A stretch of DNA of 43,054 nt, taken from positions 1 to 43,054 of the forward strand of contig CALXMI010000016.1 in assembly GCA_944389435.1 (NCBI GenBank), in the 5' to 3' direction. The DNA comes from an uncultured Opitutales bacterium. GTDB lineage: Bacteria; Verrucomicrobiota; Verrucomicrobiia; Opitutales; UBA9783. The translations under genes and the position numbers were made by a program. Positions 38,677 through 39,929 of the stretch are shown in pieces. Below the pieces are notes generated by a model that saw only the letters and a list, made by a program, of their open reading frames with translations, did no database searches and was not told where the DNA came from. Numbering within the stretch: position 1 is the first letter of the stretch; each line of letters starts with the position of its first letter.

Positions 38677-38944
38677 TCTAAATTCTCCTTATATGAAAAC
38701 CCATAAATTCAACCGTGTCAATGAAGAACCATCATAAAAATCAATAGCATACGAATTGGACAACCTTTGCAAACGTTTCACCTCAACAGGACCTTATCCT
38801 ATCGTCTTTTAACAATCGCTACTGCTCAATCCCTAAACCAATCTTGATATCCGAACTTCGTTCTAGCCAACACGAACTACTCCTGAGCTTGTAACCATAT
38901 CCGCAGCTTGCCCCGTCCTGACTTTCTGATACCCTCCGTACTTG

Positions 38945-39800
38945 TTTAACCACTAGGATGCCGTGGTCTTAGAGGTTGTTAGAACGATCCAATTTACTTC
39001 TATTCCTAAACTCGGCTACCACCTTGAACTGGCCCTTAACCTACTTCTAACGTCTTTTGAACTAGGTCAGCGATCTAAACATGTTCTGAAGTAAATCCAA
39101 TTCGCACTGACTGAACATCAGGACTCGATCGATCTGCCTAGGTACCTATTTAAACCTTCAACCTCGTCCATCCATTTTGAATCTTGGCTATGCCGTCTAC
39201 AACCTTTTCAGACAGTTCTTGAACAGTAGGATGAGGACCCGATCCTTATGGTTGTTCGAGTTGCCTGTGCACTTGAAAAGGCCTGTCCAGAACCTCCAAC
39301 CCAACCTACTCACACTATCGATAAGCAGCAAAAAGTGGTGAGGCATTCTAGGCAGAAGAAGAGAGGTTTTAGCGGGATGTCAAAGACGGTCGGACGCGGA
39401 TCCGGGTCTTAGAGGCCATCCAAACTGGAAGGTTCTCCTTTTGTACTTTAAAGACAATCCATAAAATTTTCCAAATGCCCGATAGGCCTTAATCACTAGG
39501 ATGCAGTCGAAATTTCATTCAGCTAGCACAACCTATGCCTAGGTTTGGTTTCTATCCCATCTCTGGCCTCATTCCACTCATCTTTGAAGCCGGGTTGTAA
39601 GGTTTTGTTACACGCATGAAAATTCTTTCGCCACTAGGACACCGTTCGAACCCATCTAGAATCCTTTATGATAAGCACGTACCACTCCCACCATTCCATG
39701 GCAGACCGTAACTAAAAGGCCATCGGGGATTCTAAGAATCATTCCAAACCTAAGACAACCCAACCAAAACACTAAGATGCGGCCCCATCTACTCCCGAAC
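38945..39800. repeat. Repeat locus B: degenerate tandem array, homologous to locus A in the opposite orientation
   Basis: The unit-start motif CA(C/G)TA(G/A)GA(T/C)(G/A) occurs at 38951, 39224, 39494, 39632 and 39770, with spacings of 273, 270, 138 and 138 bp. No ORF of 60 aa or more is tracked between 38502 and 39880. Confidence 0.8.
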
Positions 39801-39929
39801 GCCACAACAACAATGGGTTGGGGAGGTCATCAGGATAACAAACAAAACGCTTAGGGCTACTAACCATTTCAGGTGACTTTTTGAAAAAATCACCCGAAGC
39901 TAAGGTCTGTATATTTTTGAAAAAACTGC

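Follow-up and report, generated by a model that had tools for sequence, protein, structure and literature searches.

Long non-coding spacers and unrecognisable gene remnants are found in host-restricted bacteria, for example in Rickettsia prowazekii and Mycobacterium leprae. Intergenic units that recur in series are also known from tandem arrays of small-RNA genes, such as LhrC1-5 of Listeria and the Qrr small RNAs of Vibrio, and short repeats of a more dispersed kind include the Rickettsia palindromic elements, the repetitive extragenic palindromes and bacterial interspersed mosaic elements (REP/BIME) and the miniature inverted-repeat transposable elements (MITEs). In this study, we analysed a spacer free of open reading frames (ORFs), here called locus B, at positions 38677-39929 of a 43,054-nt stretch of DNA from an uncultured Opitutales bacterium (contig CALXMI010000016.1; the whole stretch is referred to as the window). 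Locus B lies between the genes for tRNA-Ser and the transporter UhpC; it is assigned to no strand and is made up of a degenerate repeat array at approximately 38840-39821 and of unique edges. It had been proposed from the sequence that this region is a functional array, such as a series of small-RNA genes or a phased protein-binding platform, and 'junk or a decayed duplication' had been named as the alternative. The alternative fits the data best, with the caveat that no parent gene can be recognised: we propose, with a probability of about 0.6, that locus B is an eroded, lineage-specific tandem duplication and hence a relic without present function.

Several properties of locus B are shared with the gene remnants of R. 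prowazekii and M. leprae, as it is free of ORFs, has no detectable homologue, has accumulated single nucleotide polymorphisms (SNPs) and indels, and has a gene-like G+C content (44%) in an otherwise dense stretch of genome. A further likeness is its location at gene-order breakpoints in the dense genome of a bacterium with type III secretion and a UhpC-type transporter. In contrast to those remnants, locus B has a ~137/270-bp repeat organization and an inverted second copy, and because no parent gene can be named, 'pseudogene' is an undemonstrated term for it. The grouping of a ~137-bp unit into ~270-bp (and ~543-bp) units is reminiscent of satellite-type higher-order tandem repeats, and the within-locus variants and the permuted order of blocks in the two copies resemble what unequal crossing-over and gene conversion produce in satellite arrays. 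However, compared with active satellite arrays locus B has only six or seven units, and the identity between these units is far below the detection level of Tandem Repeats Finder, which makes it a fossil and not an active array. As in the LhrC1-5 and Qrr arrays, several intergenic units of ~100-140 nt follow each other in series, each with a conserved short box, but locus B lacks a promoter and terminator for each unit, a conserved hairpin, an Rfam match and clear transcripts. Finally, a unit of ~100-150 bp that is present at more than one locus and in rearranged regions is also seen with the Rickettsia palindromic elements, REP/BIME elements and MITEs; unlike those dispersed repeats, the units described here are non-palindromic, are arranged head to tail, were found at two loci and have no near-identical copies in metagenomes.

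Repeat structure of locus B and its inverted counterpart

With both strands of the 43-kb window scanned, the motif CA[CG]TA[GA]GA[TC][GA] occurs at positions 38951, 39224, 39494, 39632 and 39770 only, all of which lie in locus B. These five positions and their spacings of 273, 270, 138 and 138 bp had been given correctly in the original prediction, and the repetition of GGTCTTAGAGG at 38965 and 39405 and of CTACT-type boxes was also borne out. The motif is contained in a core of ~20 nt (core oligonucleotide TTAATCACTAGGATGC), for which we propose TTAAYCASTAGGAYGC as the form carried by the ancestral unit. A position weight matrix (PWM) was built from the cores, and its use added two weak cores at 39116 and 39387, so that a series of seven sites is obtained (38951, 39116, 39224, 39387, 39494, 39632 and 39770), with spacings of 165, 108, 163, 107, 138 and 138 bp and a mean of 136.5 bp. 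The layout of 165+108 bp followed by 163+107 bp indicates that the first half of the array consists of two copies of a ~270-bp higher-order unit, after which come three 138-bp units. A basic period of ~138 bp with double units of ~270 bp, as had been suggested, is thus supported by the motif positions when the two weak cores are included.

All cores of locus B are on the plus strand. The strong cores are B1 (TTTAACCACTAGGATGCCGT, 38945-38964, PWM score 26.5), B2 (CTTGAACAGTAGGATGAGGA, 39218-39237, score 22.0), B3 (CTTAATCACTAGGATGCAGT, 39488-39507, score 27.4), B4 (TTTCGCCACTAGGACACCGT, 39626-39645, 138 bp after B3, score 19.8) and B5 (CCAAAACACTAAGATGCGGC, 39764-39783, score 20.0). The weak cores Bx (ACTGAACATCAGGACTCGAT, 39110-39129, score 9.4) and By (CAAAGACGGTCGGACGCGGA, 39381-39400, score 9.0) score in the background range; Bx follows B1 by 165 bp and precedes B2 by 108 bp, and By, 163 bp after B2 and 107 bp before B3, is placed such that it repeats the B1-Bx-B2 layout. 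A similar CATCC..TTTGA box is present ahead of most cores, and the interiors of the units have diverged beyond ~50%.

The ~138-bp period is visible solely at the level of the motif positions. Tandem Repeats Finder reported no array overlapping 38677-39929, even at a minimum score of 30, and per-base autocorrelation at 138 bp and at 270-273 bp was at noise level (z < 1). The description of the region as an array with periodicity therefore holds for the spacing of the motifs and is not supported by the tandem-repeat finder or by autocorrelation, both of which had been put forward as checks. Using an indel-tolerant banded word-match test, the offsets 443, 543 and 245 were significant (z of 7.4-9.2, with the 99th percentile of the shuffle maxima at 7.35) and the offset 684 was just under this percentile (z = 7.3); the offset 273 (z = 5.3) was below the 95th percentile of the shuffle maxima, and z was 1.4 for the offset 138. 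The best pair of 19-mers in locus B matches at 17 of 19 positions, compared with at most 15 in 100 shuffles. Repetition in locus B exceeds chance. The region is not a tandem-repeat array in the sense of copies at least ~70% alike that are scored by Tandem Repeats Finder, and with core spacings of 107-165 bp and cores merely 60-90% alike it is also not an array of clustered regularly interspaced short palindromic repeats (CRISPR). What it resembles is a degenerate (fossil) tandem repeat, in which the aligned units share boxes both upstream and downstream of the core.

The inverted second copy, locus A (23991-25031), is another ORF-free region, located ~14 kb from locus B between a dicarboxylate symporter gene and a 76-aa ORF and with the opposite orientation. 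In blastn comparisons, the two loci align with 59% identity over 376 nt (E = 8e-6 in the window and 4e-7 for the two loci alone), and further blocks match as well. Locus A contains three copies of the core, all on the minus strand and with a variant of its own. The same core as CTTAATCAGCAGGACGCG is found at 24266 and 24535; these are A1 (CTTAATCAGCAGGACGCGGT, 24266-24285, PWM score 27.1) and A2 (CTTAATCAGCAGGACGCGAT, 24535-24554, score 24.9), and their distance of 269 bp shows the ~270-bp unit once more. Both sit in 40-nt islands that are 93% identical, while the flanks barely align. The third core, A3 (CTTAAACTTTAAGATGCGGT, 24738-24757), was left out of the building of the PWM and scores 18.6, whereas the highest background score in the rest of the window is 13.2. 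Among the cores of locus B, B3 matches the A cores at 13 of 15 positions and is the sole match in the window to an A core within three mismatches, and Bx matches both A1 and A2 at 12-13 of 15-16 positions.

The units of the two loci can be paired. B1 is the counterpart of A2 (aligned to 24548-24533 within the 376-nt alignment), B2 that of A1 in the same comparison of the loci, and B5 that of A3 (14 of 18 positions identical to 24754-24737, with colinear matches downstream), and the similarity of the flanks is higher in these pairs than between neighbouring units of one locus. Outside the cores, the best-conserved block shared with locus A is TGAACTGGCCCTTAACCTACTTCTAACGT (39025-39053, plus strand), which is identical to 24515-24487 at 23 of 29 positions. 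A second conserved block, CAACCTCGTCCATCCATTTTGAAT (39159-39182, plus strand), lies upstream of B2 and is identical to 24343-24320 at 20 of 24 positions, and a third one (39324-39415, plus strand) is homologous to 24716-24628 with 68% identity over 97 nt. The order of the shared blocks is permuted between the loci, and it is the 39324-39415 block that is displaced relative to the others. Such a permutation is expected for pieces of a tandem array, and together with the pairing of units it is what two pieces of one old tandem array should look like. In addition, the copies within a locus have core variants in common (CAGCAGGACGC in locus A and CACTAGGATGC in locus B), which is a signature of concerted evolution within arrays. 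The 39025-39053 block also holds the pattern GAAC-N16-TCTAA; a promoter of the extracytoplasmic function sigma factor type was considered here and set aside, since the pattern occurs just four times in the window, twice in this homologous pair of blocks and once inside a gene. Loci A and B bracket a 13.6-kb segment (25032-38676) with a type III secretion cluster, which is located on the plus strand directly upstream of locus B and begins with an sctD-like gene at 28850 and ends with sctR at 37713-38501.

We suggest the following history for the two loci. An ancestral unit of ~137 bp, in which two or three smaller boxes accompanied the ~20-nt core TTAAYCASTAGGAYGC, would have been amplified by slippage or unequal recombination, partly in the form of a higher-order unit of ~270 bp. 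Part of this array would then have been placed in inverted orientation 14 kb away as locus A, through either a duplication or an inversion of which one breakpoint was within the array. Long erosion would have followed, in which neither a reading frame nor an RNA structure was kept, and short-tract gene conversion within each locus may have homogenised the cores; such conversion would explain how the cores outlived their flanks. We infer that locus B has no sequence-specific function today and that only its unique edges work, one in stopping the transcription of uhpC and the other as the promoter of tRNA-Ser.

Strain variation and comparison with relatives

The longest ORF in locus B is 54 aa long, in agreement with the earlier observation that neither strand has an ORF of at least 60 aa between tRNA-Ser and uhpC, and each of the six frames contains 17-28 stop codons. 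Five conspecific assemblies with 98-99% DNA identity all keep the order uhpC, spacer, tRNA-Ser and sctR, and gene callers placed no consistent gene in the spacer across them. Among these five assemblies, 19 of the 1253 nt of locus B are segregating sites (1.5%). Its variability equals that of other intergenic DNA (1.35%, Fisher P = 1) and is slightly above that of codon positions 1 and 2 (1.0-1.2%). Two SNPs fall within cores, namely B1 and B2, and in contigs of other samples 11 nt are deleted at 39432 and 35 nt at 39711-39747, besides indels of a single base. Variation among strains reaches into the cores and comprises indels whose lengths (1, 11 and 35 nt) are not divisible by three; it gives no support to the functional array that had been proposed.

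Homologue searches led either to conspecific strains (98-99% DNA identity) or to species with at most 81% protein identity, and to nothing between; exact searches with UhpC and SctR of the window gave no match. In species with 74-81% protein identity, the conserved gene pairs are a prepilin peptidase gene with uhpC and the symporter gene with xerC/D. Depending on the lineage, uhpC is followed by genes for a CesT chaperone and an orphan repeat protein, for an ASCH-like protein and aspS, for an epimerase or for a HAD protein, and upstream of the symporter gene relatives have a 116-aa ORF and aroA, or murein genes; near the symporter gene, only the 60 nt next to its start are conserved in sequence. 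Since the neighbours beyond the conserved pairs differ in every lineage, both loci lie at gene-order breakpoints. A comparison of the tRNA-Ser-uhpC spacer in related genomes, as recommended with the original prediction, yields no counterpart of the array, because relatives carry a different sequence there, and the repeat family was not found in the ~280 kb of relatives' loci examined. Furthermore, no additional copy with at least 80-85% identity was seen in metagenomes that hold this genome, which indicates that the repeat does not represent an active mobile element.

In the closest other species (L002, 7416-8866, and L028, 7407-8847), uhpC is followed by genes for a CesT-type chaperone and an orphan protein of ~311-314 aa, which look like a chaperone-effector pair. 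The orphan protein has internal repeats of ~55 aa, and no similarity of this pair to locus B could be detected.

Two origins through mobile DNA were considered and rejected. A remnant of an insertion sequence or MITE is not indicated, as no transposase domain was found by Pfam in any of the six frames, the inverted repeats in the loci are limited to short, imperfect pairs at chance level without terminal inverted repeats, and no other copies were seen in the metagenomes scanned (80-85% identity or above). Integration at tRNA-Ser was discarded because the array is located on the 5' side of the tRNA gene and an adjacent integrase gene is missing; the gene of the XerC/D type near locus A also adjoins the symporter gene in relatives without locus A.

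Coding, binding-site and RNA interpretations

A number of observations weigh against the interpretation of locus B as an eroded tandem duplication without present function. All four spacings between its strong cores are divisible by three, which hints at a coding past, and one minus-strand frame reads the core as the hydrophobic sequence (V/I)L(V/L)(I/V/F)K, in which the Leu codons are synonymous. Conservation is much higher in the cores than in the flanks, most clearly in A1 and A2 with 93% identity over 40 nt, and a binding site under selection would account for this equally well as gene conversion. The 1.5% variability of locus B is lower than the 2.7% observed at four-fold sites of the flanking genes (19 versus 42 sites, Fisher P = 0.037), and some constraint or a different mutation spectrum may lie behind this difference. 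A metatranscriptome contig covers 39272-39516, with the 39324-39415 block inside it. Lastly, the search for further copies in this genome covered the 43-kb window and ~8 kb of flank. Functional readings are kept alive by the contrast between core and flank, by the low variability compared with four-fold sites and by the symmetry around the secretion genes, none of which is strong.

A coding origin was examined closely because the strong-core spacings are multiples of three, a pattern with a naive chance of ~1/81 if the spacings are independent and of ~1/27 if the two of 138 bp are taken as one. Locus B could be an old pseudogene of a lineage-specific protein with repeats of ~46 aa (or ~90 aa), for example a type III secreted effector; it would have been encoded on the minus strand in locus B and on the plus strand in locus A, and would have become unrecognisable by decay after the duplication or split. 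This would be in line with the alignment of [DNG][RGHC][VI]L[VL][IVFA]K in a 46-codon register of frame -1, at six places in locus B and two in locus A, in which the second position is nearly always T in four consecutive codons and the Leu codon varies between CTG, CTA and TTA. It would also be in line with the fast-evolving, repeat-containing orphan proteins that relatives have beside uhpC, paired with CesT-type chaperones. However, the proposed frame has 28 stops in 417 codons, no fewer than other frames. No reading frame is common to loci A and B and the frames open in each do not correspond; the mismatches in their alignment are distributed evenly by phase (44/35/34), without codon periodicity, and many indels are not multiples of three. 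Within the core, conservation decreases from the second to the third and then to the first codon position, so that third positions are better conserved than first positions, and the opposite strand is equally protein-like (e.g. ELTLNLLL vs ELALNLLL). Ser, Leu and Arg abound in the conceptual peptides, which is what the translation of non-coding DNA should give.

Translated searches against relatives, which had been named with the original prediction as a way to reveal a recognisable pseudogene, gave no match, neither in a tblastx search of locus B against the ~280 kb of relatives' loci and the rest of the window, nor in tblastn searches with the genes at equivalent positions in relatives (the 116-aa ORF, AroA and a 163-aa ORF). 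A Pfam scan of the six frames of both loci at E <= 10 was also without a match, nothing was found at E <= 10 when a 2339-aa three-frame pseudo-protein (minus strand of locus B and plus strand of locus A) was compared with 5.8 billion proteins, and a full HMMER search provided no credible hit. With neither a family or homologue match nor a residual coding signature in locus B, we consider it unlikely that the locus is an old pseudogene of this type, and a coding past of locus B is no more than a possibility. As to the original unit itself, there is about one chance in three that it stems from an orphan gene with repeats, for example one for a secreted effector.

The longest ORF in locus A encodes 99 aa (24281-24580, minus strand, TTG start), corresponds to exactly one repeat unit and has a high content of Ser, Leu, Arg and Pro. 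This ORF probably does not represent a gene, and when it was run with full HMMER against 1.84 billion representatives, P0171 was the single match (E = 4e-6). This match was rejected as an artefact, because P0171 is a near-perfect tandem-repeat ORF and one ~27-bit match was counted seven times. A recoded TAG was considered for plus frame 1, in which each core contains a TAG or TAA in frame at the place of a CAG in locus A; the same frame also contains eight TAA and two TGA codons, which argues against a recoded gene. A decayed aroA or a decayed CesT-effector pair, suggested by the neighbours in relatives, was dismissed as well, since neither shows similarity to locus B.

Concerning the second functional proposal, that of a protein-binding array, the CTAG content of locus B needs to be considered. 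The reported count of 10 CTAG tetramers is correct and compares with 39 in the remaining 41.8 kb of the window, but the base composition of locus B alone predicts 4.5 (P = 0.018) and a second-order Markov estimate 8.4. The richness in CTAG is mostly a contrast with coding DNA, in which this tetramer is avoided, and three of the 10 lie within the repeated core. A real excess is seen with CTAGG, which is 9-fold over-represented (seven observed versus 0.8 expected); three of the seven are in strong cores and one other, at 39348, is in a block common to locus A.

The CTAGG excess could be accommodated by a model in which a protein occupies the ~20-nt cores at distances of ~137 bp and thereby brings about silencing, looping or recombination around sctD-sctR. 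Such a model could also account for the much better conservation of the core than of the rest of the unit, its locus-specific consensus, the variability below that of four-fold sites and the location of the loci on both sides of 25032-38676. We regard it as improbable, though, since 3-8 of 16 positions deviate from the consensus in the copies B2, B4, B5, Bx and By, SNPs lie inside B1 and B2, and the weak-core spacings of ~165 and ~108 bp leave one face of the DNA helix. Moreover, the core is not palindromic, no candidate binding protein has been identified, and relatives that also have the secretion system contain no related arrays. Very little probability is given to the more specific idea that both inverted arrays are phased platforms for a DNA-binding protein and control sctD-sctR by looping or silencing, or that they are former inversion sites; in such a platform TTAAYCASTAGGAYGC would be the putative recognition site.

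It is also conceivable that the array is part of a transcript, either as unstructured non-coding or antisense RNAs or as a long 3' region of uhpC or leader of tRNA-Ser, with the boxes serving as processing or pairing sites. The genes uhpC and tRNA-Ser and the array between them are lined up on the minus strand, and a canonical terminator is missing between them. A single public RNA run, a gut metatranscriptome, holds any locus B sequence, in the form of the contig at 39272-39516 mentioned above (234 nt), which is one of two genuine contigs with a depth of ~2 in 20 kb of the window, the other being located in a secretion gene. However, with a depth of 2.3 and unstranded, this contig is too thin to interpret and could be carry-over of contaminating DNA. 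An Rfam 15 scan of 38400-40100 at E <= 1 detected nothing inside the array; just tRNA-Ser reached the gathering score, and the other matches overlap the tRNA gene. Sliding-window folding compared with dinucleotide shuffles, on both strands of both loci, gave no consistent excess stability (z-scores of -1.8 to +2.5, the most negative being -1.78), and for an alignment of the seven units RNAalifold predicted 0 base pairs with each of the two strands. The scan found no terminator-like sites inside the array and promoter-like sites were at shuffle level, and deletions of 11 and 35 nt are tolerated by strains. Tandem small-RNA genes, as predicted originally, are thus not supported by an Rfam match, folding stability, consensus structure or promoters, and we see only a small probability that unstructured RNAs are made from locus B.

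Neighbouring genes and significance

The unique edges of locus B adjoin the genes for tRNA-Ser(gct) (38584-38676, minus strand) and for the major facilitator superfamily (MFS) transporter of the UhpC type (39930-41279, minus strand). A 23-nt palindrome, GGTGAC-TTTTTGAAAAAA-TCACC (39872-39894, minus strand), can be read from the sequence 35 nt past the uhpC stop codon and is a candidate for the uhpC transcription stop; it was not called in the terminator scan because no T-run follows it. TTTTTGAAAAAA is itself a direct repeat, and its palindrome is outside the repeat family. The promoter of tRNA-Ser should sit near the unique edge of the spacer. Within uhpC, ~120 nt (40699-40818) are missing from one conspecific assembly (L019), which amounts to an in-frame deletion of 40 codons, and the product is called there at 409 aa compared with 449 aa. 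UhpC of the window has 76-80% identity to the closest metagenome-assembled genomes (MAGs), labelled 'uncultured Opitutales' or Verrucomicrobia, and 65-68% to Puniceicoccales MAGs from termite and cockroach guts, and the exact window sequence occurs mainly in chicken-gut and other gut metagenomes, with contigs of up to 296 kb in the chicken-gut assemblies. The source organism is uncultured, belongs to the Opitutales/Puniceicoccales group of the Verrucomicrobia and is a gut bacterium that probably lives with a host.

The secretion cluster (28850-38501) ends at sctR, with tRNA-Ser directly after it; sctS, sctT and sctU do not follow, and no match to them was found among the window ORFs scanned. 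As relatives have the secretin and CesT genes at other loci, the genes for the type III apparatus appear to be scattered, as in Chlamydiae. One ORF of the cluster (35532-36653), with an HpaP/SctP-like C-terminus, contains a 78-bp (26-codon) tandem repeat in 2.9 copies at 35867-36096. Strains differ by 66 nt in this putative ruler or substrate-switch protein of type III secretion (373 versus 351 aa), which shows that its length is polymorphic in the population.

Elsewhere in the window, a third ORF-poor stretch of 585 nt (5004-5588) lies between the gene for an NAD-dependent DNA ligase and a 147-aa ORF; its similarity to loci A and B is only at chance level. Among housekeeping genes, 6290-14236 holds a phage head-module cluster with genes for a large terminase (6616-7935), a Mu-type portal protein (7877-9133) and a Mu-like protease/scaffold protein (9130-9762) and with several proteins without a Pfam match. 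This cluster may be a prophage remnant or an element similar to gene transfer agents. The last ORF of the window (42180-43040, continued in L020 at 7751-9100) encodes the C-terminal part of a 449-aa protein, in which a domain similar to EIIA of the phosphotransferase system (PTS), a DacZ_P sensor domain and a diadenylate cyclase (DAC) domain are joined, an unusual combination for a cyclic di-AMP synthase.

The finding itself is of little weight and adds another stretch of decaying, lineage-specific repeats in an uncultured gut bacterium. It also illustrates that a visually striking, phased series of CTAG-rich motifs needs no function in RNA or protein and can be left behind by the erosion of a tandem duplication. 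If it were true that the cores are bound by a protein, inverted arrays on either side of the secretion genes would be an interesting regulatory architecture. As relics, the two inverted ORF-free loci mark breakpoints around the type III secretion cluster and are useful for reconstructing how this genome has been rearranged.

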